Shown here: piece after piece, positions 13,006-36,784 of the stretch
How positions within the stretch are numbered: position 1 is the first letter of the stretch
How the letters are laid out: each line of letters begins with the position of its first letter
Source: an uncultured virus (IMG/VR IMGVR_UViG_3300045119_000323)
Taxonomy: Duplodnaviria; Heunggongvirae; Uroviricota; Caudoviricetes
Length of the DNA: 64,000 bases
Virus record (IMG/VR): IMGVR_UViG_3300045119_000323
Strand: one strand, 5' to 3'
Notes under the pieces: model-generated
What the model was told of the DNA's origin: nothing
Seen by the model: only the letters and a program-made list of their open reading frames with translations
The model's database searches: none
Made by a program: the position numbers and the translations under genes

Positions 13006-13926
13006 CTAGGCTCCCGGCGTCCCGTAGAGGGTGCGGAAGTTGGTCCAGCTCACGTCCCAGCGGCTCGTGACCTTGTAGCGCATGCTGTCGGTCTCGAAGT
13101 CGCCTTCCATGCTCTTCTGCGCCATGCGCCGGGTCAGGAACTGCAGGCCCATGCGCTCGTCGGTGTGAATCCACCACGCCGTCGGCGAAGTGAGGCGGGT
13201 GATGACGCAGAAGCCCTTCGGCAGAATCTTCAACGACATGATGGGGTTGATGTCGTTGTTCGCTCCACCCGTACGCAGCGCCGACTTGGTGATCACCTCG
13301 GCCTGAAACTCGTTGTCGGGACCGACGACGAGGCATTCCGGGTTGATGCGCACACGCTTCTGGTCGTTGTCCTGCGACTTCCTGATCTGGATCAGCATCG
13401 CCTCGGCCGAGGTCTGCGACAACGCTGCCGGGGTGCCCAGCAGGTTGGACATGACGCCGCCCAAGATCGGATGCTGCGAGTTGATCAGCGAGACGCCGTC
13501 ACCGCCGAGGTAGGGAGCGGAGTTGGTGAACGAGAAGTTGAGGACGTTGGCGGCGGCGGTCTCCTCGGTCTCGACCATCGCTTGGCCGAGCTGCTCGGAG
13601 TAAATCTTGCCGAGGTTGATGTGATCGCCATCCTCGACCAAGACTTTCGTCATGGCGAAGGCGGCACCGTACTGGCGATAGACGTAGCGCTTGTTGAACA
13701 GGACGCCGCCCTGCTTGTACTGCACGCCAGTCCCGTCGGGCATCTGCGGGGCAGAGCCGAGGCCGAACATCACAGGCTCTTCATGGTAGGCACGGGGCGT
13801 TCCCGGCTTGGTCATGAAGATCGCCTTGTACTCATCCTTGCGCTGGCTATACACGCCATCGAAGTGGTCGTTCATGATCGGCTCGACGATCACCCTGAAC
13901 TGACTTGAATTCATCGGGACGGCCAT
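13006..13926 (-). CDS. Major capsid protein (Mu gpT-like, HK97 fold), 306 aa
   Basis: GGAGG RBS before MAVPMNSS. AAANVLN, GGDGVSL..HP, NNDINP and DFETD..RYK..R motifs are typical of this capsid family. Confidence 0.9.
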   Translation of the reverse strand: MAVPMNSSQFRVIVEPIMNDHFDGVYSQRKDEYKAIFMTKPGTPRAYHEEPVMFGLGSAPQMPDGTGVQYKQGGVLFNKRYVYRQYGAAFAMTKVLVEDGDHINLGKIYSEQLGQAMVETEETAAANVLNFSFTNSAPYLGGDGVSLINSQHPILGGVMSNLLGTPAALSQTSAEAMLIQIRKSQDNDQKRVRINPECLVVGPDNEFQAEVITKSALRTGGANNDINPIMSLKILPKGFCVITRLTSPTAWWIHTDERMGLQFLTRRMAQKSMEGDFETDSMRYKVTSRWDVSWTNFRTLYGTPGA

Positions 13927-16767: not shown

Positions 16768-17238
16768 TTAACTGGTCACCACGACCAGCGGATCGCCGGT
16801 CACGCGACCGATGAGATCGGTATCCTTGCAGATCATGAACACGGCATGCTCGTCCTTGGTCTGCCCTCCGGGGACAGGGACGACCCAGCGGTCTCCGCCA
16901 TACATCGGGCAGCGCACGAAGTCGCCGACCTGACACCACGCACCCTCGGCCCACGGCGCAAGGGTCGTGCGGTTCTTGAACGCCGATGGACCCGTCGCGC
17001 GCACCAGCCCAGTCTGTACGCGGTAGCGCTCGGCGTCGCGTGATTCATCTGGAATGATCAGGCCGCCCTTGCTGAGTCGTCGCGGCGTGCGGAGCTGCAT
17101 CAGCACCAGATAGCCGAACGGCACGACACCGGGGTCGACATCGGGGAAGGAAACCTTGAGAGCGTCGTCGTAGCGGTTGCCCAGAATGTCAGTCACGTTC
17201 CTGAGATTCAGGCCTTCGATTGCAGTCACGACATCCAT
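16768..17238 (-). CDS. GroES-like co-chaperonin
   Basis: PFGYLVL...SKGGLIIP...GLVRATGP...WCQVGDFV...D.LIG matches the Cpn10 pattern. Confidence 0.8.
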   Translation of the reverse strand: MDVVTAIEGLNLRNVTDILGNRYDDALKVSFPDVDPGVVPFGYLVLMQLRTPRRLSKGGLIIPDESRDAERYRVQTGLVRATGPSAFKNRTTLAPWAEGAWCQVGDFVRCPMYGGDRWVVPVPGGQTKDEHAVFMICKDTDLIGRVTGDPLVVVTS

Positions 17239-17964: not shown

Positions 17965-20682
17965 CTAGGGTCCGGGGTTCTGACCTGTTCCGGTCTTGAG
18001 ACGGTTCGAGGCCTTGTCGGCCTTGATGTTCTTCTCAGTGATTTCCAGCGCGGTCTGATTGTCTTCCTCGTTGGTCTTGATCTTGGCATCGACCTGATCG
18101 GCGGCGATCTGCTCGCGCGACTCGTTGGTATCGCTGGCGATGGCCTCGCGCGACTCATTCGACGCCAGCGCAGCCTCGTGAGTCAATGCCTGACCGTGCG
18201 CCGCCACGACATTGCTCTCGCGCGCCTGCTGGGCCTTGGCCTGCTGGTCGCGGTCCTTGGTCTCACTGTCTCTCGCCTGCTTGTCCTGATCGGCCTTGAG
18301 CTTGATCGCCGCCAAGGTGTCCTTGCGCTTGTCGGCTTCGGCCTTGGTCTGTGTCGCCACCAGTTGAAGCTGGGTCTTCTTCTGCTCGTTCTCATCCTTC
18401 GCCTGATCGGCCTGCTCCTGCCGGGTGACGTCCTTCATCGCCACCGCCGACGGGTCCATCGGCATCGGCGGCGCGAGGCGCTGCATCAGCATCTGGGCCT
18501 GCGCGATCACCGCCGGCAGTCGGGCGAGCTGCTCGTCGGCGTATTCCATGACGGCCGGCGTCAGCTCGGCGAGCAGGCGGTCGAGCGGTGCCTCGTAGAC
18601 CGGTCCGGCCATGCTCTCGATGGTGAGCTGCGGATCGCCGGTCTTCTCGCGCAGCGCGGTGTTGGCGGCATCGAGCATGGCGTCGGCGTACCACAGCGCG
18701 ATGTGCTCGCCGAGATGAGGCAGCAGCACCGGCAGGCACTTCTGCGCCAGCAGCGGGTTCGCCCCGAACAGCGGCGACATCAGGAAGGCGGCGTGGGTCG
18801 CCAGATGGGCCTCATGGTCCTGACCGGGGAACGCCTTGATCGGCAGGCCACCACATGACGTGGCGTTCTCGGCTACCGCGTTCTGTTGGGTCGGCTCGGG
18901 CGACGGCTGCAGGAACTGGTCGGGGTCCGGCACCTTCATCTGCTTGAGCAGATACTTCTCGGAATTGCGGACGTTGTAGATTTGCGGCAGCAGTTGCGCG
19001 CGCTGGCTGATCAACTGCGCCATCGACTGACGCTGGATGTCGGAGAAGATGCGAGGGTCGCTGACCGGGATCACCCGCATCGGGCCTTGGAAGTCTTCGC
19101 GCTTGACGATCAGCTCGCCGAACTGGTCCTGCACCTGCACGTTGTCGACGGTGTCGGCGTTGATGTCCCAGAGCTGCTTGAGGAAGCGCGCCATCGAGCG
19201 ATGCATGCGGCCATGCACGGCACCGAAATTCTTGAGGCCCTGCTCGATGAACATGTTGGCCGTGCCGACCGGCGTCTGGCCGTTCATCTTGTCGAATTCG
19301 TCGAACGTGGTGCGGATCACGCCCTGCGCCGCATCGACGAGGAAACCGAGCAGGTTGAACAGCACCGCCGACGGCGGCGGGAACGGCAGGGGCATGTAGG
19401 TCTTGCGGACGTCGTCCATCGCAAGCGTGCCCTTCATCTCGGTCGTCTGCATCGGCTGGGCCTTGATGTTCTGCCCACCCTCGGTCGCGCCTCCTTTGAG
19501 CTTTACGCCGGTCTGTGAGTTGTTGAGATGGGCCGCATCGAGCAGCGCCCGCAGCGCTCCGGTCGCCGCACCCGACAGGCCGCCAATCATGTGCGTCATG
19601 CCGATGGGATAGCCGCCGCGCCACGGGTAGAACGGCCATTCGATCACGAAATCGAGTCGTTTCTTGTCAGGATCGGTCTGCTTCCAGTTGCGATAAATTC
19701 CGAGGATTTTCTTGGTGTCGTCGTCGACCGTGACGATGTAGGGCTCGGCCGGATCGTCATCGTCCATCAGGCCTATCATCACCGACGACTCGAACACGAG
19801 GCGCACGTTGTCGACGTTCTCGCTCGGCCGGTCGCGGCCGATGATGCGGTCGTTGGACTGCTGCGAGCGCGTCTCGTCGGGCACGTCCTGCCCCGATTCC
19901 GGGTCGAAGGCGTCGACCCACAGGCCGGACCGCACGTTGTCCATGTACTGCCACTTGTCGACTTCCATCTCGTGGGTGATGCGCGGCTGCGTGTAGATCG
20001 GCCCGTCGCTCCATGGCCGATGGATTTTGTCGATGGTGATGGCGATCACGCTCATGCCCTGCGAGTCGTAGATCGTCTTGGTGTAGAAGCCGCCGCCCAG
20101 ACTGCACTGCGTGAAGCCCATCTCGAACTCGTGGGCGACGTTGGGCATCATGTCGGTGATCTGCAGGTTCATGTAGCGCGCGGTGCGCTCCGCGATGTCG
20201 TCCTTCTCCATGGTCGGCGTGCCGATGGTCTTGGCCTTCACCGGGCCCTCGGGCGGCATCATCTCGTTCATGATGCGCGAGGCGAAGTCGATGGCCGAAG
20301 CCGTCAACATCGGGTGGACGACCCGGCTGGCACCGGGGAACGTGGCACCACCGGGCGCGTCGTCACCAAGGCCCGTTCGACGCAGGCCCTCCTCGTACTG
20401 CTTGTCGCGCTTGGCGCGCGCCAGCTTGTCGATCTCGATGGCGTCGAGCAGATCAGTTGCGATCTTGCTCAGGCGCGTCGGGTCCATGGTCTCCACCAGA
20501 TTGGCGAAGTGGTCGCGCATGTCGGGCGGTGGCGGACCCTCGGGCGGCATCTGCACATCGACGTTGCCCTCCTCGTCGATGTTGAGATCGGAGCCAGCCG
20601 GAGTCGTCGTCTGCAGCGTCGATACGCCAGTGTCGCTACCCGGCTCGGCATAGGGGTCCATCGCGCCGTTGGTGAAGGCCAT
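17965..20682 (-). CDS. Portal protein, 905 aa
   Basis: FPGASRVVHPML...PPEGPVK...YMNLQIT...PVGT...PVSDP...QDHEAHL motifs; coiled-coil C-terminal barrel. Confidence 0.9.
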   Translation of the reverse strand: MAFTNGAMDPYAEPGSDTGVSTLQTTTPAGSDLNIDEEGNVDVQMPPEGPPPPDMRDHFANLVETMDPTRLSKIATDLLDAIEIDKLARAKRDKQYEEGLRRTGLGDDAPGGATFPGASRVVHPMLTASAIDFASRIMNEMMPPEGPVKAKTIGTPTMEKDDIAERTARYMNLQITDMMPNVAHEFEMGFTQCSLGGGFYTKTIYDSQGMSVIAITIDKIHRPWSDGPIYTQPRITHEMEVDKWQYMDNVRSGLWVDAFDPESGQDVPDETRSQQSNDRIIGRDRPSENVDNVRLVFESSVMIGLMDDDDPAEPYIVTVDDDTKKILGIYRNWKQTDPDKKRLDFVIEWPFYPWRGGYPIGMTHMIGGLSGAATGALRALLDAAHLNNSQTGVKLKGGATEGGQNIKAQPMQTTEMKGTLAMDDVRKTYMPLPFPPPSAVLFNLLGFLVDAAQGVIRTTFDEFDKMNGQTPVGTANMFIEQGLKNFGAVHGRMHRSMARFLKQLWDINADTVDNVQVQDQFGELIVKREDFQGPMRVIPVSDPRIFSDIQRQSMAQLISQRAQLLPQIYNVRNSEKYLLKQMKVPDPDQFLQPSPEPTQQNAVAENATSCGGLPIKAFPGQDHEAHLATHAAFLMSPLFGANPLLAQKCLPVLLPHLGEHIALWYADAMLDAANTALREKTGDPQLTIESMAGPVYEAPLDRLLAELTPAVMEYADEQLARLPAVIAQAQMLMQRLAPPMPMDPSAVAMKDVTRQEQADQAKDENEQKKTQLQLVATQTKAEADKRKDTLAAIKLKADQDKQARDSETKDRDQQAKAQQARESNVVAAHGQALTHEAALASNESREAIASDTNESREQIAADQVDAKIKTNEEDNQTALEITEKNIKADKASNRLKTGTGQNPGP

Positions 20683-23600
20683 CAGTAGCGTCCTCCGTTG
20701 CAGTACCTGAGCGCGCCACGCGGCACCTGCCCGCCAGTCGCCGACTTGAGGACGAGCTGCAATGGCGTGCCGCGCGCAAGGTCACCGAAGCCCTCGCCGA
20801 AGTGCCCCTGCACCATCGCACCGACACCCTCACCGAGTCGTCCAAACCCTTCGGCGAAAGCTCCACTGCCAACGCCACCAAACAACATGCTGACGCCGCG
20901 CCCGACCGCTCGGCCGGCGTCGCGGCCAATCAGCTCTCCCTGATCGAGGTTGGACGGTTTGTCGCCCGACAGCGCATCCCAGATGCCGGAGCCGGGGTCC
21001 ATCGGATAGGCTCCGCTCTCGGTCTCGCTCTGGCCGGGTCCGCCGGCAATGTGCTTGGTGAGGCTCGCAGCGTCGCCCATCCAGCCCATGATCGGCAGGC
21101 CGGCCATGCCGCTGGCATCGGCCCCCTGCGCGCCACCTTCGTTCCATATTCCGCCGCTGCCACCACCAACGCTGCCCATCAGGTCGCTGATGCCGCCACC
21201 CGCGAAGCCGGGGACGTAGCCGCCCTCGTCGTAGAACATGGTGCCGTAGTTGAGCATCTCGTCATCAACCTTGCCGCCCCCGGCCAAGAACATCGGCAGG
21301 ACCTTGAGCGCGAGATCGGCGATCTGGCCAATCGCCTGACCCGCGCCGCCTCCACCGCCCGATGATTGCTGCTTGGCCGGCTGCATGAACTGAAGGGGCG
21401 CGAGATCGCGCCCGCCATTGTCGCCGGTACTTGCGCCCGTCGGATCGGCGAGCGAGAGACCCTTGTCGACGCCGTCGCCGGCCTGCATCACGTCGATCAG
21501 CGACTTGCCGGGCACGGTGAAGTTGCTGCCGGTCGACGAGCCGCCGTCGGCGAAGCCGGGGATGTAGCCGCCGCGCGCCTCGAAGAGCCCCATGATGGCA
21601 TCCGCGCCGCCCGTGTCGCCGCCACCCAGCGAGCCGGGGTCCATGCCGCCGGGCAGCCCACCGAGGCCGCCGGTCGAGTTGAGGTCGCCGGTCGTGTAGC
21701 TGCCGCCGGGGCCGCTGCCGACCGGTCCGCTCGCCGACACAGGACTGCCCTTGCCGCCTAACAGGCTCTTGCCGGCGTTCGCCATGTTGAAGATTGAATC
21801 GAGCGGGCTGCTGGAGGTGCCGCTGCTGGCCTGCGCCGCCTGCGGCTGCATGAAGGAAAGCGGCGGCGGGGCGTGGCGCGCGATGTCGGGCATGTCGCCG
21901 AAGGCGTCGGTCGCGCCCGGCACGATGCCCTTGAGGAACGACATGATGTCGTCGTTGACCGATGAGCCGGACGATCTGTCGGTGCTGCCGCCGGAGGCGT
22001 AGTAGGCCGCGCCACTGGGATCGGCACCGCTGCGTGTCAGCGCCTCGCCCAAGTCGGCAGCCAGCCCACCGCCGACCTTCTCGGCCCCGGCGACATACGG
22101 CTTGAAGTCGGGCATGAAGTGCGCGAGCCACGACTGCAGGGTGTCGTGTTTCTGGTCGGTCAACGAATTGAAGGCGGTGCCTGCGCCGTAACCCAACCCG
22201 ACGCCCTGACGGAACTTGGCTGGCCCAAGGAACGGTGCCGTGTGACTGAGCGCCCCGACCGCGCCGCGCTGGTAGGGGGAGATGTCGTCGCCTGCCATGT
22301 TCAGTTTCCCTAGCTCTTCGCTCGCCAACTGGGCGAACGTGGCATCTTTTCCAAAACCACCACCCACCCAACGGTCGGTGGCACGCAGCTTGGCAATCAG
22401 GTCACTGGGCAAGAGATTGCGCAGGAACACTTCGCGCGACGACTTGAATTTGTCGTCGAGTCGTTCGGGGAAGCTCTTGTCCCAATCCTTCCACGTCTGG
22501 TTACGCCGCCACATCTCCTCCTTCTCGGGAAGATCGGCCAGCGCATCGATGCCGAGGTCGGCCACCTTGCGGGTGCGCGGGAAGGTACCGTAGTCGGGGT
22601 CGCCGCCCTCCTGCAGGCCCTGCACCGGGCCACCCTCGGCGTAGGCCCCGGCCTTGCCGGTCAGAACCAGATCGCGCGCCGTCTCGGGCGATACGCCGAG
22701 GCGCGCCGCCGTTCGCATGATCTGGCCCGACATCATCTCCAGCTTGGACGGACCGATGTAGCGCACACCGGTCTGCGGCCCCAGCGTGTTCCAAATCATC
22801 GCCTGCATGTCGCGCGGCTGCATGCCGACTTTCTCGCTGGCGCGCTGCCACCACGGCACGAAGTCGCCGTACTCCGGCGTGGTCAGTTCCTTGAACAGGT
22901 TGTCGGCGCTGCCTGTCCTGACGTCGGAGTAACCGACACCACGCGCGAGATGGGCGTCGGCAATCGGCCGGCGCGGATCGGCAAGGACCGGATCGGTTGC
23001 CTGCACATAGGTCGGTACCTTGTGCCGGTCGGTCCACAACTGGCCCGATGCTTCGAGGTTGATCAGCGGCTTGCTATGTGCCGTCGAATGGTAGGCGTGG
23101 CCCGGTATCTGGAGCATGTCCTCCGGATAGTTTCCCATGCTCACGCGCTGATGCTCCGGCACACCTGCGAGGTCGATGTAGTCACCGAGCCGCCCCGCCT
23201 CGGCCAGCCAGTTGGCCGACGTGCCGCGATTGATCTCGGAGCGCGGCGACGCACCCGCCGAATGCAGGCCGACGCGCGTGTTGAACATCCGCTGGTACTC
23301 GGGCGACATGCCGAGCTGGTCCATGCGATCCCACAGCGGCTGCATCTCGTACCACGACCGCGTCAGACGCAACTGCGGATCGTCCAGCGCCGCCTCGGCG
23401 ACGTTGGTGATGCGGTTCATGTTGCTGGGCGTCAGGACCTTGTCGGAAATCGCCGAACCGGTCGCGCCGGGCGGCGGATAGTAGGCATGCGGCTGCATGA
23501 ACAGGTTCGAGTGGTTACGACTCTGCGAGAGGTCGTCGAGGCTCTGGCGGTCGACGCTGAATAGACGGCGCATCGCCTGCTCGTCGCCCTCGTCGTAACG

Positions 23601-26600
23601 TGCCTTGGCTTCGGCGATGATCTGGGCCGGCGGCTTGTAAATGCCGGCAAAGGCCATGCGCTCGGGATTGGTGACGGTTTGAATCTTGGGATCGGGCGGC
23701 AAATAAATCGGCGCGGCTTTCGGGCCACGCAGGGCGTTGAGTCGTTTTTCCTCTTCGAGCGCGGCAGCAATCCGACGACTCAATGCACCGCCGGTCGGCC
23801 GATAACCGACCTGCGAGAGCGCGCCGCCCTCCTGATCTTGGGTGACATCGGTATCACCCACATCCTGCGAGTCGTCGGCCGGCAGGCCGAAGCCGCCGAA
23901 AGCGTAATTGCGGATCATGCCACCCTCGGCCTTGCCGAAATTGAAATCGAGTTGCGCCGGATCGCTGTCCTTGAGCGGGTTGCCGGTCTTGCGTTCGAGG
24001 TAATCGGCCCAGCTCGTCATGGCATCCTTCAACGAGAAGTTGGGATAGCCCGACAGGTTGCCCTGCACGTCGACCGGCACGCCCATCTCGCTGAGACGGG
24101 CCAGCGATGGCACCGTGGCCAGATCGAGCGACGCCGGGTTCCACGCCGCCGCCACGGCACCGGTCTTGGGATGCAGGATCGGCACGCGCGGCTTGTAATC
24201 GGCGAGGCCGTGCGCCTTGGCCCAGTCGGCGTAGGCGTCCTCCATGGCCTTCGATTCATCGGACGTCGCGCCGAAGCGGCTTTTCTGGTCGAAGATGCTG
24301 CCGATATGCTGGGCAACATCACGACGCTGGCTGTAGCCCGCACCCTCGTCCCATGCGTTGTGCACGCCGCCGAGACGCACGAGGTTACCGTGCTGGTTGG
24401 CAACCAGCATCTCCGGCAGATTACCGAAGCTCGACCACATGTTCTTCGGCAGATACGACGAGTAGATGTCGCCCTCCGACGGCATGTTCGACCACGGCAC
24501 CTTGGGCAGGCCGAACGGCGCATCCATGTCAGGATGGGGATGCACCGACCACGGCTGGCCCGGCGCATTGGCCCACAGGTTCTTTTTGACGGTGCCGGTC
24601 AGGCGGACGCTGCCCTTGTCGCCCGGCAGCATGCGCCCGGTGTAAGGCTTGGCGAGGTCGTCGCCGTAACGCCCGTGGACCAGCGCCTCGTTGCCGGTCT
24701 CGTCGACATGCTTGAGAACCCGCTCGACGCCCTTCTGGACCGACGGGTCGAGGCTCTCCTTGAGCGCGCCCTTGTTGAAGAAGTTTATCAACTTCAGCGG
24801 ATTGATCGCCGCGAGCTGCGAGAGCGCTCCACCGCCCTCTGCGTCGGGCTGGCCGCCGACATCGAAGTGCTGCACGCGACCTCCTTCGGCCTTCTCGCGG
24901 TTGACGATGTCGATCAGGTCGGACGATTGCGGGAAGACGACGTAGTTGCGCGTCCTGCCGGGGTCGTCCTCCATTGGTCCGGCGAATGGAAAACGTTGCT
25001 GCTGCCGGCTGAACTTGTCGAGGAAGCGAACGCCATGCACGTCGAGGTCCGACAGGTAATTGGCGGTCATCTTCTTGGCCGAGTCGTCGTAGAACGCATC
25101 CGACATCACACCTTGCGGGCCGGGCTGCATCAGGAAGTGATGCAGGTCGCGCCCGGTATAACCGTCAGGTGCATCCCATGGGCTGTTCAGACCTTCGTAG
25201 TCGAGATGCTCGCCGATGCTGTCGGCGACATTCGGATGAACCCTGTCCATGATCCGGCGATTGCCGCCCTTGTCGAGGGGCGCATCCCAATCGAGAAAAT
25301 TGTCGGGGTGCGAGTTGATGTCGAGATGGTAGAGCCAACCGGGCTTCTGCGGTTTGTAAAACGGCGGAATGCCCGCGATGGTTCGCTTGATCTGGTCGGG
25401 ATCGAATTCCTGACCCGTCTTGCTTCCGCCGTAGGTGTTGCCGAGTTTAGCGGCGATCTCCTCGGGAGTGGAGCCGCCGGCCAGATTGTTCTGGAGGTAG
25501 CGCGCCAGCATCTCGGTGCGGCCGGGGTCGTCGAGATCGACGTGCTGCTTGATCAGCGCCTCCATCATGCTGTTCATGCCGAGGCGATCTACCGGGGCAC
25601 CGTAGCGCGTCCAGCGGCCGGGCTCCTCGCTCTTGTCACCCGTGATGCGGCGGTACTCCTGACCGACCTGCGGGTTCTCGGCCGAGTAGAAGCCGTGGCC
25701 GTAGGCGGCGCTGCCCTCGCCCTTGCCGATGAACGACGGATCGAACTTGTCGAACTTGTAGGGCGAGCCAGTGTAGGTGCGGATCGGACGACTCAGTGCG
25801 CCCTTCGCCGCCTCGATGCCCTTCTTCACCAGACCCAGTTCGTTCATGTGCGGGACGGCACCGCCGTCGGCGAACGGCACCGTGAGCCGCAGCCCGGCAC
25901 CCCAGTGCGGCTTGGCCTGATCGCCGCCGGGGCCGACATACTTGTTGAAGCTGCCCGACGCGCCGAGCCGCGCACCCTGCTTCCCGATGGGATGCTCGTA
26001 GCCCAGCAGGGCGTCGACGATCTGCGCAGTCGGATCGTAGCTGAACCCCGCCGTGCCCTTGCCGTCGCCCAGCGGGACGTCGAACGTCGGCGTGCCGTAG
26101 TCGCTGTGAAACCCCGGCACCCCACCGCCCTCGGCCCACGTCTCGGGCAGGCGCGGGAAGTCCTGTTCGTCCTGAAATCCCCGGCTGGCGAGCGGCTCGA
26201 AGGTGTTGGAATACTGCGGGATCACCCGGCCGCTGCCCTCCTTCTCCAGCATGTCACGCAGTACCTTGGCCCGTTCGCCGGCCGGCAACTGCTGCAGGAT
26301 GGAGCTGGGATCGTCGGGCCTGATGCCGACCAATGACACGTTGTCGCCCAGCGGCCCCGCCATCGTCATCATGCGATGACGGCCCTCGTGCCGCGTCGTG
26401 CGCGGCAGCGCGGTTTGAGTCATATCGTTGGGGTGCCAACCATAACGCCCCTGTTCCGGGGTTAGGCCAAAACTGAGGCGCGGCACCTCGGACCAGTTGC
26501 CTTGCTTGGCGACGTCGCCGTAGTTGTTTAGCACCTGATTGAGCGAGCCGACCAATCCCTGAGAACTGAACTCGTTGGCCAGTTGGTAGGGGTTCTCGCG

Positions 26601-26933
26601 CAGCCTGTCGGGATCGATGCGAAAGGCGTAGTCCTGAAACGTCTTGGGATCGATGGTCGTCAGCAGATGGCCCTGCTCCGGATTGACCGCCGTCTCCAGC
26701 GCGCGCTGCGTGTAGTACGAAAGATCGGCCCCCTCATCCTGCGCCTTGATGAGTCGTCGGGCGTGTTCTTCGCCCCAGTAGTCACCAACCTTGGCGACGT
26801 TCAGGGCCACGCGACGCGCCGCGTCGCTCTGAATCTCCGGCGCGGCCAGCGCAGATGCGCGCGGCACGAACAGTGGGTCCACTGCCTTCTTCGCAGCCTT
26901 TATGGTTCGCGCAATTTTGACAGGGTCGACCAA
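20682..26933 (-). CDS. Giant polyvalent (multi-enzyme) protein, 2083 aa, with modules separated by AxGG motifs
   Basis: GGGGAG RBS with TTG start; stop overlaps the portal ATG. ParB-like HEGRHR, ART-PolyVal-like GSP..FDKFD...IGKGEG..AYGHGFY, JAB-like HPHP...PSEGD, and a glycosylase-like D.H..R...QAMIW module. Confidence 0.8.
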   Translation of the reverse strand: MVDPVKIARTIKAAKKAVDPLFVPRASALAAPEIQSDAARRVALNVAKVGDYWGEEHARRLIKAQDEGADLSYYTQRALETAVNPEQGHLLTTIDPKTFQDYAFRIDPDRLRENPYQLANEFSSQGLVGSLNQVLNNYGDVAKQGNWSEVPRLSFGLTPEQGRYGWHPNDMTQTALPRTTRHEGRHRMMTMAGPLGDNVSLVGIRPDDPSSILQQLPAGERAKVLRDMLEKEGSGRVIPQYSNTFEPLASRGFQDEQDFPRLPETWAEGGGVPGFHSDYGTPTFDVPLGDGKGTAGFSYDPTAQIVDALLGYEHPIGKQGARLGASGSFNKYVGPGGDQAKPHWGAGLRLTVPFADGGAVPHMNELGLVKKGIEAAKGALSRPIRTYTGSPYKFDKFDPSFIGKGEGSAAYGHGFYSAENPQVGQEYRRITGDKSEEPGRWTRYGAPVDRLGMNSMMEALIKQHVDLDDPGRTEMLARYLQNNLAGGSTPEEIAAKLGNTYGGSKTGQEFDPDQIKRTIAGIPPFYKPQKPGWLYHLDINSHPDNFLDWDAPLDKGGNRRIMDRVHPNVADSIGEHLDYEGLNSPWDAPDGYTGRDLHHFLMQPGPQGVMSDAFYDDSAKKMTANYLSDLDVHGVRFLDKFSRQQQRFPFAGPMEDDPGRTRNYVVFPQSSDLIDIVNREKAEGGRVQHFDVGGQPDAEGGGALSQLAAINPLKLINFFNKGALKESLDPSVQKGVERVLKHVDETGNEALVHGRYGDDLAKPYTGRMLPGDKGSVRLTGTVKKNLWANAPGQPWSVHPHPDMDAPFGLPKVPWSNMPSEGDIYSSYLPKNMWSSFGNLPEMLVANQHGNLVRLGGVHNAWDEGAGYSQRRDVAQHIGSIFDQKSRFGATSDESKAMEDAYADWAKAHGLADYKPRVPILHPKTGAVAAAWNPASLDLATVPSLARLSEMGVPVDVQGNLSGYPNFSLKDAMTSWADYLERKTGNPLKDSDPAQLDFNFGKAEGGMIRNYAFGGFGLPADDSQDVGDTDVTQDQEGGALSQVGYRPTGGALSRRIAAALEEEKRLNALRGPKAAPIYLPPDPKIQTVTNPERMAFAGIYKPPAQIIAEAKARYDEGDEQAMRRLFSVDRQSLDDLSQSRNHSNLFMQPHAYYPPPGATGSAISDKVLTPSNMNRITNVAEAALDDPQLRLTRSWYEMQPLWDRMDQLGMSPEYQRMFNTRVGLHSAGASPRSEINRGTSANWLAEAGRLGDYIDLAGVPEHQRVSMGNYPEDMLQIPGHAYHSTAHSKPLINLEASGQLWTDRHKVPTYVQATDPVLADPRRPIADAHLARGVGYSDVRTGSADNLFKELTTPEYGDFVPWWQRASEKVGMQPRDMQAMIWNTLGPQTGVRYIGPSKLEMMSGQIMRTAARLGVSPETARDLVLTGKAGAYAEGGPVQGLQEGGDPDYGTFPRTRKVADLGIDALADLPEKEEMWRRNQTWKDWDKSFPERLDDKFKSSREVFLRNLLPSDLIAKLRATDRWVGGGFGKDATFAQLASEELGKLNMAGDDISPYQRGAVGALSHTAPFLGPAKFRQGVGLGYGAGTAFNSLTDQKHDTLQSWLAHFMPDFKPYVAGAEKVGGGLAADLGEALTRSGADPSGAAYYASGGSTDRSSGSSVNDDIMSFLKGIVPGATDAFGDMPDIARHAPPPLSFMQPQAAQASSGTSSSPLDSIFNMANAGKSLLGGKGSPVSASGPVGSGPGGSYTTGDLNSTGGLGGLPGGMDPGSLGGGDTGGADAIMGLFEARGGYIPGFADGGSSTGSNFTVPGKSLIDVMQAGDGVDKGLSLADPTGASTGDNGGRDLAPLQFMQPAKQQSSGGGGGAGQAIGQIADLALKVLPMFLAGGGKVDDEMLNYGTMFYDEGGYVPGFAGGGISDLMGSVGGGSGGIWNEGGAQGADASGMAGLPIMGWMGDAASLTKHIAGGPGQSETESGAYPMDPGSGIWDALSGDKPSNLDQGELIGRDAGRAVGRGVSMLFGGVGSGAFAEGFGRLGEGVGAMVQGHFGEGFGDLARGTPLQLVLKSATGGQVPRGALRYCNGGRY

Positions 26934-27003: not shown

Positions 27004-27690
27004 CTAGGAATCGAGCGGCATCTCGCGGTGCGGGTAGCCGCCGCGCAGCCACGCGATGTACTGGGTCAGGGTCATGCCCATGCCGGCGAGGTGGCTGTCC
27101 TGCACATAGAACGCGCCACGATGGCCACTCAGCCGGATTTTCCAGCCATCGATCTCCTCATCGCGCTCGGACGTTTCCCACGATTGGCCCGCGCCCGCTC
27201 GGTCCCCTCGAACGGAGAAATGGGTCTGTAGTTTGGATCGTAGGCCTTCTGGACCGTCAGGCGGTCCCTTGTCCCCAGCGTGTCCCATAGCTTGATCTCC
27301 TTGGCGGTGTACTGCTGCAGCTCGCGAAAGCTCAACTCGATCTGACCGCGCACGCCATTGCGCGTAACCTCCACCGCGACGCCAGAGGGCAGGTCGAGGG
27401 CATCCGGCCGGACCGGCTCCGAAGACTGCTCGGTATTCTTCTCCTCGCTCATTGTAGACACCATCGAAATGCTCGCGTAGTGCCGGCTCGACGAGCTGCC
27501 GGAACAGCCGGTAGTCCATGAAGCCACGCGCGTAGCGCTCGGTTGACTTGTAAATCAACTGGTCGGTCGAGAAGTCGGCCGGCGTGACCGGCACGATAAG
27601 CGCCCGGCTCATCTTCATCAACGACTCGGCCTTGATGATCGCCGGAGCCGCGAACAGGCCGAACAGCGCTCCGCGCCGGCTAATCTCCAT
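27004..27690 (-). CDS. Protein with a twin-arginine-like N-terminus and permuted capsid-derived segments
   Basis: MEISRRGALFGLFAAPAII, followed by segments that align to the C- then N-terminus of the capsid protein. Confidence 0.6.
   Translation of the reverse strand: MEISRRGALFGLFAAPAIIKAESLMKMSRALIVPVTPADFSTDQLIYKSTERYARGFMDYRLFRQLVEPALREHFDGVYNERGEEYRAVFGAGPAGCPRPALWRRGGGYAQWRARSDRVELSRAAAVHRQGDQAMGHAGDKGPPDGPEGLRSKLQTHFSVRGDRAGAGQSWETSERDEEIDGWKIRLSGHRGAFYVQDSHLAGMGMTLTQYIAWLRGGYPHREMPLDS
27129..27452 (-). CDS. Hypothetical protein nested in another frame of the 27004-27690 ORF, about 107 aa
   Basis: MSEEKNTEQSS... with normal codon use. Confidence 0.45.
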   Translation of the reverse strand: MSEEKNTEQSSEPVRPDALDLPSGVAVEVTRNGVRGQIELSFRELQQYTAKEIKLWDTLGTRDRLTVQKAYDPNYRPISPFEGTERARANRGKRPSAMRRSMAGKSG

Positions 27691-28120
27691 GGCTGGGCTG
27701 GTCCCACGCCTTGGCGGCATAGGCCGCCTTCAGCTCGTTCAGCGCCACGTCGGTCGTGCCCTCGATGGCGTGGCAGCGGTAGCGCACGCGCACGAGATTG
27801 GGCCACGACCGGTTGGTCTCGAAGTCACCGGGGCGATCATAGACCTGCGGCAGCGTGCGCCACACCAGCGTGCAGGATTTGGCATCGGGCGGCATCGACT
27901 GGGTCGTCAGCAGCTTGAGCGCCGCCATCATCGACTCGTGGGGCTCGCTCGCGTCGAGATCGCAGAGATGCTCTTCGTAAGGGATACCGAACTCGCTGAT
28001 GTAGCGTGGCGCACCGACCTCGACCCGGCCGAAGCACGACTCGATGTAGCGCGCGATCCAGTCCTCGACGGCGCTGCCGTGGATCGCGACGTACCTCTTG
28101 GCCGGGCTTTCTTCGCTCAT
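27680..28120 (-). CDS. Hypothetical protein, 146 aa
   Basis: ATGA-coupled start MSEESPAKRY. Confidence 0.65.
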   Translation of the reverse strand: MSEESPAKRYVAIHGSAVEDWIARYIESCFGRVEVGAPRYISEFGIPYEEHLCDLDASEPHESMMAALKLLTTQSMPPDAKSCTLVWRTLPQVYDRPGDFETNRSWPNLVRVRYRCHAIEGTTDVALNELKAAYAAKAWDQPSHGD

Positions 28121-29483: not shown

Positions 29484-29924
29484 ATGGACAATCCCGAACA
29501 CTTCGCGCTGGCGGAATTCCTCGCCAGCGATACCGCCGATTCCATCGGCGAAAGCAACTACCCGACGTGGCAGGTCACCGACAACCTGAAACGACTCGGC
29601 GAGACCATGGAGCGCGTCCGCGCGATCCTCGGCGACAATTCGGTGACGGTGCTGTCAGGTTACCGCTCGCCGCCGGTCAACGACGCAGTCGGCGGAGCCA
29701 CCAACAGCGCCCACCTGTACGGCCTCGGCTGCGACTTCGTCTGTCCAGACTACGGCACGCCGCTCGACATCTGCCGCGAGCTGGAGACCTACATGGAGGT
29801 GCTGGGGATCGACCAGCTCATCTGGGAATTCGAGGACTGGGTCCACCTCGGCCTGAGCGAGGGCGCGCCGCGCAACCAGTGCCTGACCATCGATGAACAG
29901 GGCACCCGCGAAGGCTTCGCGTAA
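29484..29924 (+). CDS. Peptidase M15A endolysin (Zn D-Ala-D-Ala peptidase fold)
   Basis: SGYRS..VN.AVGG...SAHLYGLGCD...DQLIWE..WVH. Confidence 0.9.
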   Translation: MDNPEHFALAEFLASDTADSIGESNYPTWQVTDNLKRLGETMERVRAILGDNSVTVLSGYRSPPVNDAVGGATNSAHLYGLGCDFVCPDYGTPLDICRELETYMEVLGIDQLIWEFEDWVHLGLSEGAPRNQCLTIDEQGTREGFA

Positions 29925-33083: not shown

Positions 33084-33491
33084 CTAGGGGTTGATCTTGA
33101 AGGTGATGAACGTGCCCGAGCCGCTGCCCGTGCCGGTCGACGCACCCGCCGCAGCCGACTGGCTGTGGTTGGCGGCGAGGCCCAGCGCGAACTGCGCATT
33201 GTTGCTCGTGCTGGCCGCCTGATTGGTCTGGGCAGCCTGCGACGTGCTGGAGCCCGCACCGATGACGTTCTGGCCGGCGGCCTGACCGCTGGAGGTCGCT
33301 GCACCGCTCGTGGTGCCGGCGGTCACGCCGATCAGGGCAGCCGCGCCATTGCTGGACGAGGCCGACGCCGAGGTCGACTGGCTGTTGGCGGCGGAAGTGC
33401 CGACGCCAATCGTGAGCTGCTGCGCGCTGGCACCGAACGCCAGACCCACAACAGCAACGCCCGCGAGCAGGGCGATCTTGAGGTTCTTCAT
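33084..33491 (-). CDS. Exported Ser/Ala/Gly/Gln-rich protein, 135 aa
   Basis: GGAG RBS; Sec signal ending ASA; almost uncharged mature region. Confidence 0.75.
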   Translation of the reverse strand: MKNLKIALLAGVAVVGLAFGASAQQLTIGVGTSAANSQSTSASASSSNGAAALIGVTAGTTSGAATSSGQAAGQNVIGAGSSTSQAAQTNQAASTSNNAQFALGLAANHSQSAAAGASTGTGSGSGTFITFKINP

Positions 33492-33641: not shown

Positions 33642-35168
33642 TCAATCATAGGGGTTGCGTATCTCGCCATCCTCTCGCCGCAGCTCGTCGTAGAGCGCTT
33701 GGTTCTCGCCGAGATCGACGTCGACCATCAGCGAGTCGTCGACCATGTCGCCGTCCTTGCGCTCGGTCGTGACGCCCATGGTCAGCCAGCGGTCGGCGAA
33801 GTATCGCGTCGCCTGACTGAAGCTGTCGATGAAGTCGTCGTGCCGCGTCGTGCCCGGCCCGGCGTAGGTCGTCAGCTCTTTCACGAATGGCTCGCACCAG
33901 CTCCGGGGCTCGCCGCGCACGGCTTTGGATTCGGGCAACCAGATGCGCCCGTTGGCGGCGACGTGGCTGACCGCGTGCAGACGACTCATCTTGTCAGCCT
34001 TGCCGGGATTGTACGGCCAACTGTCGATGCCCTCGTACTGCAGCGTCTGGCGCAACGAGATGCCGGAGCCCTTGTCCTCGATGATCAGCAGGTCAGGGGT
34101 CTTGATCTGCTCGTGGTACTGGCTCGGCCCGATCAGCGGCTTGAAGATCAGGTCGACACGCCGGCCGTAGCGCGCCTTCAGTTCCTGCTTGGCACGCTTG
34201 ATCAGCTCGGGAAAGCCGATCTGCTCGTGCCAGCATTCGAGCAGCAGCATGTGCCACTTGCGCTTCTCGGGGAACACGCCCCACACCGTGCAGGCCGTGA
34301 AGTCGGGCTCGTAACTCTTCTTGTCGAACGTCGCCTCGGTCAGCGCCGTGTCGAGCGAGATGAACACGAAGTCGAACCACGGCAGCGGACGACTCGTCGG
34401 CCACAGGTTAAGCCACGAACGTTTGATGATCGCCGCCTCGCCGACCTCCAGCAGCTCGCCCAGCACCTCCTGCCGGTAGATTTGCGTGCCCTCGTACTGC
34501 GCCAGCTCGTCGAAGAACGCCTCGGCGAGGTTGGCGCGATTTTCCATCGTCGTGCCCATGACGACTCGAACGTCCTTGCGCGCCAGCATGTCCTTGAGCC
34601 AGTCGATAGGACGCGGCGTCGTGGTGTAGAGGCGCTGCGGCTGAACCCGCCGGCCGTCGGCCGTGGTGAAGAACAGGCGGGTCGACAGATCGATGTTGCT
34701 GATCACGTCCTTGGCGTTGTGGCCCCACGTCGCGATCTCGTCGCCCCATGTGAAGTGCGACTGCGGACCGCGCAGTCGATCCGGCGTCTCGGCCGAGAAC
34801 CCGCGAATGATGGTGCCGTTGACCAGCCTGATCTCGAACAGCGAGTTGTTGATCTGCGCAATCATCGGCGCGGGGATCGAGTTGATGAGCCCCGACGGGC
34901 CACCGAAAACGACTCCACGCAGATCGCCATAAGTCGGCGCGATCACATGGATCACGCAGCCGGGGTAGAGCCCCGCGCAGCGTCGCACCCAGCTTGCCCC
35001 GACCAGTGTCTTGCCGAAACCGCGACCGGCCTGCACGACGCACAGGCTCCAGCCGTCAATCGGGATGATCTGCTTGTAACGCGCGCGCTCGGCCCAGCGA
35101 TGCTCGGCCTCGATGAAGGCCATCTCGTGATCGCTGGTCGCCGCGAGTCGTTGGCGGAGGGTGCTCAC
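33642..35168 (-). CDS. terL: Terminase large subunit, 508 aa
   Basis: Walker A AGRGFGKT, LRGPQ, Walker B WGDEIA, coupling TTTP, RNase H-like SLDTA and HDDFIDS. Confidence 0.95.
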   Translation of the reverse strand: MSTLRQRLAATSDHEMAFIEAEHRWAERARYKQIIPIDGWSLCVVQAGRGFGKTLVGASWVRRCAGLYPGCVIHVIAPTYGDLRGVVFGGPSGLINSIPAPMIAQINNSLFEIRLVNGTIIRGFSAETPDRLRGPQSHFTWGDEIATWGHNAKDVISNIDLSTRLFFTTADGRRVQPQRLYTTTPRPIDWLKDMLARKDVRVVMGTTMENRANLAEAFFDELAQYEGTQIYRQEVLGELLEVGEAAIIKRSWLNLWPTSRPLPWFDFVFISLDTALTEATFDKKSYEPDFTACTVWGVFPEKRKWHMLLLECWHEQIGFPELIKRAKQELKARYGRRVDLIFKPLIGPSQYHEQIKTPDLLIIEDKGSGISLRQTLQYEGIDSWPYNPGKADKMSRLHAVSHVAANGRIWLPESKAVRGEPRSWCEPFVKELTTYAGPGTTRHDDFIDSFSQATRYFADRWLTMGVTTERKDGDMVDDSLMVDVDLGENQALYDELRREDGEIRNPYD

Positions 35169-35549: not shown

Positions 35550-35993
35550 CTAGGCGGCGACCACGATGTTCGAATCGACCGAGGTCGAGCCGCCGGCATT
35601 GGTCGCCGTCAGATGGCAGGCGAAGGCCCGGCCCACATCACTGACCGCGAGCGGATACGGCGTGCCGGTGCCGACAACAGCACCGTCAGCCCACCATTCG
35701 TAGGCGTAGCTGGTCGGCTCGCCGATCCAGTTGCCCATGGTGCAGGTGAGCGTGCTGCCTTCCTGCGCGGCGTAGGGTGCGTCGACCACGGTCGGCGCGG
35801 CCGGCGGAACCGGCGGCGGGACATCGGGTGCCACGTCATGCACGGGCGGCTGCTCGGCGGGCTGCGTGCCGACCGGCACCGCGACGTCGTGGTCGGCCAC
35901 CGTCATCGGCGTCACCGCGACCTGCGGCGTCGGAGTCGTTTCGATGCTGGCCGGCTCCGGCGTCGTCGTTGCATAGGTGTTTGGATCGCTCAT
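35550..35993 (-). CDS. Ig-like domain protein, 147 aa
   Basis: GSTLTC..G.W...P.SY.Y.W...DVG...C..TATN..G. Confidence 0.75.
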   Translation of the reverse strand: MSDPNTYATTTPEPASIETTPTPQVAVTPMTVADHDVAVPVGTQPAEQPPVHDVAPDVPPPVPPAAPTVVDAPYAAQEGSTLTCTMGNWIGEPTSYAYEWWADGAVVGTGTPYPLAVSDVGRAFACHLTATNAGGSTSVDSNIVVAA

Positions 35994-36784
35994 GTGCCGT
36001 CTCCCGTGGTCCCGCTGCTGTCGGTGGCCGGGTCGGAGGGCGGGCTTGCTCCATCCCCGGCGTTGAAGGCGTCGTTGAGAACCTGCGCTGCAGTTCTCTC
36101 ATGCAGCTCGCGCAGCTCGCGCAGCACGGGATGGACCGGATCGACGGGCGGCGGCGGCACGTTCGAGAGCATCGCCGCGTCGATCAGCGCCGCCATGGCG
36201 CGGTTGGCATCACGCTGGGTGTCTTCCATCGTGCCGTAGATGCCGCGCCAGTCGGTCAAGTCGAAGCTATATCGGCGATGAACGCGCAGCGGCCCGGTCG
36301 TGAAGTTGGAATTGATATCGTTGTCCGCCGTGCGGGGGCGCAGCAATGAATGTTGTCTCGCGCTATGCCACAACTCTTCTGCCGGGCCGACATAGTATCG
36401 CGTACCCATGCCATCGATCTTGTCGGTGTTGACCAGCGCCAGCATGCGCTCGGTCAACACCTCGTCGTCGCTCAGGGCAAACCAGCCGCGTGCCCGCGCC
36501 AATATCAGGACGCTATCATCGACAAACAACCGGCGCTCCTCGAAGAACGCACGCTCATGCATGCACTCGACCCTCGGCATGGTGTCGAGCCAATCATCGA
36601 ACTCAACACGCAGGTCGGTCTCCTCCATGACCTTGCGCGTAGGCCACGGCAGAGGACTGTCCTCGATCTCGTAACGGGTGAACCGCCGCACGCCGACCCA
36701 TTCAAACGCCGCGAGCTGCCACACGCCGTTCGACATGGTCGGCTCGGTCACGCGAATGAAGGTGCTGCGATGGGGCACAGTCAA
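35990..36784 (-). CDS. Protein containing shuffled major-capsid-like segments, 264 aa
   Basis: VGP...ADNDIN, RYSFDLTDWRGIYGT and AAQVLNDAF align to separate parts of the capsid protein. Confidence 0.65.
   Translation of the reverse strand: MTVPHRSTFIRVTEPTMSNGVWQLAAFEWVGVRRFTRYEIEDSPLPWPTRKVMEETDLRVEFDDWLDTMPRVECMHERAFFEERRLFVDDSVLILARARGWFALSDDEVLTERMLALVNTDKIDGMGTRYYVGPAEELWHSARQHSLLRPRTADNDINSNFTTGPLRVHRRYSFDLTDWRGIYGTMEDTQRDANRAMAALIDAAMLSNVPPPPVDPVHPVLRELRELHERTAAQVLNDAFNAGDGASPPSDPATDSSGTTGDGT

Follow-up and report, generated by a model that had tools for sequence, protein, structure and literature searches.

A fast-evolving phage gene with a capsid-derived tail and its possible use as a decoy for capsid sensors

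Why should a phage that has a major capsid gene of its own also carry, elsewhere in its genome, a gene that resembles pieces of capsid? The question is raised by an open reading frame (ORF) in a DNA stretch of 64,000 nucleotides from an uncultured member of the Caudoviricetes (IMG/VR record IMGVR_UViG_3300045119_000323); this whole stretch is referred to here as the window. The original prediction held that the ORF was assembled from four shuffled capsid motifs, and that two such genes in one genome pointed to a strategy of capsid-epitope mimicry. The ORF and two reference genes are:

35990..36784, minus strand: capsid-derived ORF, TTG start, 264 aa, member of an unnamed phage family
13006..13926, minus strand: the phage's own major capsid gene, Mu gpT-like, of the HTVC023P / Caulobacter RW type (Pfam PF25209 and PF10124)
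33642..35168, minus strand: terminase large subunit gene, the downstream anchor of the locus, with the same neighbourhood in L083 and L086

The gene, its neighbourhood and its phage

The ORF was confirmed at its predicted position and is a real gene. Its TTG start overlaps the stop codon of an upstream 82-aa gene, its own stop codon overlaps the ATG of the next gene, and its GC3 is 0.80. Judged from sequence, it is translationally coupled on both sides. A promoter scan for the gene gave results at chance level. A known unrelated family covering its residues was sought in Pfam, PHROG and NCBIfam, and none was found at E≤0.001; searching PDB by sequence likewise returned nothing. Matches in the ESM Atlas (PIN-like or unnamed, 0.87-0.90) shared fewer than 170 features, which is at chance level, and were rejected.

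The gene sits between methyltransferase and terminase genes, in the packaging region and outside the structural module. In all five distant contigs with context, the family gene follows a methyltransferase or 82-aa gene and/or precedes an Ig-like gene or terminase; within these five, L086 and L087 seem to carry the two halves of a single gene. The next gene, to which the ORF is coupled (35550-35993, minus strand), encodes 147 aa, Pro/Thr-rich at the N-terminus and Ig-like in the C-terminal part (phrog_26223). The family member in L083 looks fused to a Pro/Thr-rich stretch similar to that of the 147-aa gene, and in L086 the neighbour of the family member seems to lack the Ig-like part.

The phage of the window is podovirus-like. 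Its genes include an SU10-type adaptor, a tail collar, a terminase, a VapE-type primase-helicase and the Mu gpT-like capsid gene. The annotated capsids nearest to its own are those of a Manatee Spring phage (60%) and of Caulobacter phages RW, GB2A, RLK and KcrB (58%), followed by CRP-901 and HTVC023P (35-37%). Among the 22 runs listed, ten carry at least half of the locus words. These ten are metagenomes of soil, rhizosphere or mine origin, and one of them may be where this DNA came from. Two RNA-labelled runs and one guessed to be RNA contain only 5-6% of these words.

Other features of this phage and its relatives were observed alongside. A GroES-like co-chaperonin gene (16768-17238, minus strand; Pfam Cpn10, E 4e-4) lies in the head module and is also annotated in Caulobacter phage RW. 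Adjoining the probable portal gene, 20682-26933 (minus strand) encodes a 2083-aa protein with repeated AxGG words and a patchy homologue in the phage G004; it matched nothing in Pfam or PHROG and may be a modular ejected protein. A 135-aa, secreted-looking Ser/Ala/Gly-rich gene (33084-33491, minus strand) is very different in its middle in L001 (pS 0.38 vs about 0.05 for its neighbours) and nearly identical in L002, which suggests allele exchange. A 146-aa peptidase-like lysin candidate, judged by eye (29484-29924, plus strand), is conserved in L086; it and its neighbours lie on the strand opposite to nearly all other window genes. In L039 (9989-10902) the capsid gene is broken across two frames, through a frameshift or an assembly error. 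A second capsid fragment within 10 kb of the capsid gene was found in none of 80 loci.

Compared with two strains, the 35990-36784 gene has pN/pS values of 0.58 and 0.71 (about 26-31 changes each) while the terminase gene of the same strains has 0.03 and 0.01; the high values rest on few changes and also fit relaxed selection. Family genes are 38-40% identical where the terminases are 79-80% identical. In the sister phage G004, whose capsid and terminase are 93% and 78% identical to those of the window, the methyltransferase-to-terminase interval is intact and the family gene is absent. An HNH-like ORF, recognized by eye, lies before the terminase there, at the spot of the 35990-36784 gene (L123:8300-9400). 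Indels within the gene in four other soil runs, among those listed, consist of a 9-base loss and a compensated +1/-1 pair, both of which keep the frame. At the sequence level, the gene is shown to be intact, fast-evolving and dispensable.

Capsid likeness of the tail and its recurrence in the family

Each of the four proposed pieces was aligned locally with the phage's own capsid and compared with 3000 shuffles. Capsid residues are numbered from the Val at 13920, two fewer than in a count from Met. The piece windows were picked after the matches had been seen, and the shuffle counts are therefore optimistic. Piece 2 (VGP..NDIN) was equalled by none of the shuffles, piece 4 (ERTAAQVLN..GDG) by six and piece 3 (NFTT..IYGT) by 20; for the whole ORF, 20/3000 shuffles were as good or better. 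Piece 1 (MTVP..EPTM) was matched or beaten by 804 shuffles and is not significant. It is the first strand of the conserved folded domain described below, not a demonstrated copy of the capsid N-arm, and the N-arm motif was found in 0/22 family sequences. The capsid-like features of the tail are:

36224..36463, minus strand: residues 108-187, in the same order as capsid 171-302 except for 47 deleted residues (family profile aligned with 19 capsids)
36311..36391, minus strand: motif VGP..LLRPRTADNDIN, residues 132-158, corresponding to capsid 199-225
36230..36307, minus strand: motif NFTT..RRYSFDLTDWRGIYGT, residues 160-185, corresponding to capsid 273-301, predicted disordered
36044..36109, minus strand: ELHERTAAQVLNDAFNAGDG, residues 226-247, resembling the end of the capsid spine helix and GGDG (capsid 117-144)

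The claim that the pieces are partly out of order applies to piece 4 alone, since pieces 2 and 3 follow capsid order. The roughly 45 capsid residues said to be missing between these two were indeed missing, with a gap of 47 (capsid 227-273). The stretch NFTT..RRYSFDLTDWRGIYGT is a second copy of the hairpin and C-terminal motif.

Profile methods placed the ORF well above background, as the original prediction would have it. A 108-sequence capsid profile scored the ORF at 18.0 bits (E 7.5e-5 among 1082 window frames), against 5.6 bits for the best of 2000 shuffles, and among these frames only the capsid and the gene at 27004-27720 ranked higher. Profile-profile alignment of the family with the capsids (hhalign) gave a probability of 96.5 and an E-value of 7.5e-10. 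In 41 of 49 other phage records the family profile produced a single match, which fell in the capsid-bearing frame, and the other eight produced none. The tail (108-187) is, by these alignments, capsid-derived and in capsid order. A merely chance resemblance is exceedingly improbable: BLASTP on its own reaches only E=0.004 (for piece 2) and piece 1 lacks significance, but profile scores, reciprocal matches and family-wide motifs all speak against it, and for the tail it is refuted by the hhalign result and the matches in 41/49 records.

Two further candidates were rejected. DNA-level similarity between the ORF and the capsid gene consists of chance-level words only, and a recent duplication of the capsid gene can therefore be dismissed. 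The stretch ALSDD..TERML was considered as a copy of capsid ALSQTSAEAML; it was found in 0/22 sequences by PSSM, though the profile alignment begins at that helix.

A word-indexed search returned two relatives of the ORF, 91% and 62% identical, and a profile search of 1.84 billion representatives returned 20 family members; the family alignment holds 22 sequences. An N-terminal block of about 125 residues is common to all 22 (one only partly), and the tails are of very different length. Motifs were counted with 200 shuffles for each of the 22 sequences at p≤0.01. LRxGxNDIN (the LRPGTADNDINP motif) recurs in 14/22 and is lacking in eight, including members of sister pairs. Because the search profile had included the tail, a second count was restricted to members that qualify by the N-terminal block alone, and 11/19 of these have the motif. 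WxDWR..YG was found in 9/22 and DFxTD in 4/22. The spine-end motif (piece 4) occurs in 2/22, namely the ORF and its 91%-identical twin. By PSSM, ELHERTAAQVLNDAFNAGDG is positive only in the ORF and P0001 and is replaced in the 62%-identical P0002, and by this measure the fourth piece is confined to this phage species.

None of the 22 sequences matched PF25209 or PF10124 at E≤0.1, and profile-family searches across them gave single matches only (E 0.03-0.09). Neither 49 other phage records, many of which are partial, nor GTDB contigs searched with one pattern yielded a family member. A search for shorter capsid relatives yielded only high-scoring partial capsids among the best 120 of 167. The family is invisible to Pfam and PHROGs, so similar genes have probably been overlooked in phage annotation.

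Over 66 pairs of members, mean identity was 55% in the motif and 31% in the folded block; 37-93 residues separate the two. This looks like selection on the tail motifs. In 19 diverse capsids, the motifs that are kept rank with the most conserved 12-residue windows, which is partly a detection bias. The family motif consensus has P217 and D221 (each 9/13), neither of which occurs in any of 35 near-cognate capsids, one further row being a gap. An exact search with the motif consensus found 17 viral contigs, in 17/17 only inside capsids of other members of the capsid family, a result that points to a general capsid pattern rather than to recent copying from the phage's own capsid.

These data bear on a second explanation: a folded half that serves some unrelated purpose, and a tail acquired through recombination as a piece of capsid that is now decaying and can be recognized only at its most conserved words. 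This would fit a folded half present in 22/22 sequences beside a tail motif in 14/22, the sister pairs P0123/P0125 and P0130/P0135 that differ in motif presence, a motif distribution not clustered on the tree (391/500 shuffles as low), and a tail that is predicted disordered with pN/pS near 0.6-0.7. Over deep branches, however, conservation is higher in the motifs than in the folded domain and the spacers vary freely, whereas in a neutral relic both would be expected to decay. An exapted domain with a relic tail is considered unlikely.

The other proposed capsid-mosaic gene was also recovered:

27004..27720, minus strand: 238-aa ORF with a twin-arginine-like leader, then capsid 269-296, then capsid 10-39

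It scored 43 bits against the capsid profile, so the genome does contain a second such gene. Its leader, recognized by eye, matched no Pfam or NCBIfam entry. A scan of viral contigs with its first 110 residues returned eight loci. Six of them are true capsids, one is an unrelated long protein and one belongs to the same species. Among these eight, the capsid-bearing part of the gene is found only in this phage species. The ORF overlaps a 132-aa ORF in another frame (27129-27527, minus strand), of which the part from MSEEKN looks protein-like, and G004 contains a 56%-identical match, free of capsid pieces, to the final 64 residues of the 238-aa ORF; the true gene boundaries may therefore differ from the 238-aa call. 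The two mosaic genes share no detectable homology beyond their capsid source and hence look like independent captures. Their presence supports recurrence, not purpose.

The folded N-terminal half

The structure of the protein alone was predicted, as had been proposed. AlphaFold2 with the 22 sequences gave a confident domain at residues 6-130 with a pLDDT of about 96 (95-98 in each 10-residue block from 11 to 130); a model from three sequences only reached pLDDT 34. Predicted strands lie at 6-12, 16-18, 21-23 and 26-36, helices at 37-42 and 47-67, a hairpin at 72-102 and a further helix at 108-116. The stretch 155-185 is largely of low confidence, with pLDDT <50 at 155-178 and 183-185. The HK97 domain names given to capsid segments follow the general layout of the fold. 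The features of the folded half are:

36473..36769, minus strand: residues 6-104, folded N-terminal domain, probably a minimal HK97 P-domain made up of a strand, a short and a long helix, and a long beta-hairpin
36479..36571, minus strand: residues 72-102, beta-hairpin with family consensus DFxxD, corresponding to the capsid P-domain hairpin at capsid 259-296 (DFETD)
36659..36682, minus strand: FTRYEIED, residues 35-42, in the register of capsid FAMTKVLVED, a weak likeness (hhalign E 0.13, 9/100 shuffles as good)

Sequence evidence points to the capsid. Residues 68-122 aligned with capsid 259-296 by hhalign at a probability of 43.7 and E 2.4e-4, which 0/100 column shuffles equalled. When about 17,900 frames were scored with a profile of residues 60-104, related capsids made up 45 of the best 50 (best capsid E 0.55), and the capsid matches, among those listed, all fell at about 264-289. 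For FTRYEIED, the PSSM gave p≤0.01 in 3/22 sequences. Residues 1-66 showed neither capsid enrichment nor a significant likeness to capsid sequence. Sequence searches for a solved relative of this capsid family came up empty.

Structural comparison gave a middling signal. A VIA search of 48,161 chains returned, by reading the titles of the best 50, 35 HK97-fold capsids or encapsulin, ten neck or tail-terminator proteins and five others. The best Z was 7.3 and none of these 50 reached 8; a Z below 8 may reflect merely a common arrangement. Examples are Kp7 (Z 7.3, rmsd 12.4 over 107 residues), P1 (6.4, 3.5, 87), phiCD508 (6.2, 3.4, 94) and HK97 (5.7, 9.3, 101). Foldseek against PDB and BFVD returned nothing at E≤0.001.

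The same searches raise the alternative that the folded half comes from a tail-terminator or neck protein of the lambda gpU type, which would make the protein a chimera of neck protein and capsid motifs. Terminators lead and dominate the Foldseek-filtered list, and ten of the best 50 VIA matches are neck or terminator proteins, the best (Z 6.9, rmsd 4.3) extending over 102 residues and covering 1-105. Terminators reach Z 5.8-6.9 with rmsd 3.6-4.3, level with the capsids. Capsids nevertheless fill 35 of the best 50 rows, sequence ties the hairpin to capsid 259-296, and no sequence link to a terminator family was found, so that a terminator origin appears very unlikely.

The hairpin match by sequence instead suggests a capsid domain: the folded half is probably an HK97 P-domain core in which a spine-like helix is joined straight to the C-terminal hairpin, without an A-domain. 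A folded A-domain is absent, capsid 227-273 being deleted and residues 155-178 and 183-185 having pLDDT <50. The N-arm and an extended E-loop are also absent, with the N-arm motif in 0/22 sequences and only a short hairpin (16-18, 21-23) before the first long strand. The expectation that the protein would be unable to form a full HK97 fold was borne out, since the A-domain strands are deleted and 155-185 is predicted disordered. The description of the ORF as a set of shuffled capsid motifs holds insofar as it is capsid-derived; its first half is a folded domain and its tail is mostly in capsid order.

Possible function and comparison with known systems

The best reading, put forward tentatively, is that the protein is a non-assembling capsid look-alike that baits host capsid sensors. 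In this view the gene descends from a gpT-like major capsid gene and persists, as a dispensable accessory gene, in a single clade of podovirus-like soil phages. Its folded half would be a P-domain core which, lacking an N-arm, a long E-loop and a folded A-domain, could not polymerize into a shell. Made together with the packaging genes and remaining soluble, it may display capsid surfaces (the P-domain sheet, the spine helix and flexible conserved motifs) to host sensors of unassembled capsid. Sensors occupied in this way without being switched on would be decoyed, with the tail supplying additional baits that vary, by gain or loss, between lineages.

Several observations are consistent with a decoy. 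Capsid ancestry is indicated by profile, hairpin and structural matches; the identity of 55% vs 31% over 66 pairs points to selection on the motifs; the motif consensus with P217/D221 is unlike near-cognate capsids; and the gene behaves as an accessory gene in a conflict might (pN/pS, low identity, absence from G004). Capsid sensors exist, among them CapRel and Avs7, 8 and 10. On the other hand, a faithful look-alike could trigger a sensor rather than block it. Among late proteins, capsid is normally one of the most abundant, and a TTG-started gene of the same phase may not out-titrate it. Avs7, 8 and 10 read a folded A-domain surface that is absent here. The structural match is middling (Z ≤7.3, with terminators up to 6.9 and nothing from Foldseek at E≤0.001), residues 1-66 have no significant capsid sequence signal, and the main motif is missing in 8/22. 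The pN/pS values would also fit relaxed selection, and detection is biased toward the most conserved motifs.

In another possible role, the P-domain-like core and the tail motifs would bind capsid or scaffold and modulate assembly, either poisoning co-infecting phages or satellites or tuning or decorating the phage's own head in a Ccm-like manner. The gene lies in the packaging region and is coupled to the Ig-like gene, and the motif consensus fits other capsids of the family better than those of the phage's own clade. Capsid homologues that redirect assembly are known, such as Ccm (PMC8569155), and P-loop and E-loop contacts hold capsomers together (PMC11312562). Yet Ccm is a full capsid homologue, a poison would have to spare the phage's own capsid, and a gene whose evolution outpaces that of core genes by far, and which the sister phage G004 lacks, is unlike a part fitted to its own shell. 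Assembly modulation is rated somewhat unlikely, though it and the relic-tail explanation follow closely behind the decoy reading.

If the decoy reading is extended, phages would build decoys from their own immune triggers, a free-standing HK97 P-domain with changeable, most-conserved capsid motifs soaking up sensors; this generalization is possible but doubtful. Were it true, the conserved words of the family would mark capsid epitopes watched by soil bacteria. A separate fast-evolving capsid derivative would also open a second escape route besides capsid mutation and offer a protein ready for testing. Irrespective of function, a P-domain that is soluble and folds with no A-domain would be a natural minimal HK97 module. 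No description of a capsid-derived decoy or truncated capsid paralogue was found in the literature searched, in which subscription papers were little covered.

Among known proteins, the Mu gpT-like major capsid proteins (PF25209, PF10124; of the HTVC023P, CRP-901 and Caulobacter phage RW type) supplied the tail motifs and, probably, the folded domain. Unlike them, the protein has no detectable N-arm, no long E-loop, deleted A-domain strands and the hairpin motif twice, matches neither Pfam family, and is fast-evolving and optional. Tail terminators (lambda gpU, the R4C terminator) have a similar alpha/beta arrangement (Z 5.8-6.9), but the aligned ranges begin at terminator residue 27-39, leaving the terminator N-terminal part unmatched, and there is no sequence link. 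The gpU type is a conserved core gene of the tail module, whereas the gene studied here lies outside the structural module, is absent from G004 and has pN/pS of 0.58-0.71. DSAD1 is reportedly a phage inhibitor of the tail-tube sensor DSR2 that competes for the trigger's site; it resembles the proposed decoy as a phage protein countering a sensor of a structural protein, its target being a tail-tube sensor.

Capsid epitopes are read by CapRel-SJ46, Avs7/8/10, Dsr1, Thoeris ThsB1 and Lit/Gol, according to three sources (PMC9712102; PMC13581612; PMC11312562). In these texts the triggers are true capsid, and the escape described is capsid mutation. Avs7, 8 and 10 bind the A-domain of capsid monomers, and Lit and CapRel are said to read short motifs (both PMC13581612); Thoeris senses capsid hexamers (PMC11312562). 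CapRel is predicted (PMC9712102) to contact the P-domain sheet and spine helix of capsid, the very parts that the domain appears to keep. Ccm of SaPIbov5, the closest case described, is a satellite-encoded full capsid homologue built into the shell (PMC8569155); its structure (7rwz) is among the VIA matches at Z 5.3. The protein resembles Ccm as a capsid homologue encoded outside the main capsid gene, for Ccm with a role in conflict, and differs from it in being a half-fold in the genome of a phage with its own capsid gene, not in a satellite. The gene family is an unnamed, capsid-derived one, a variant of capsid-homologue accessory proteins.
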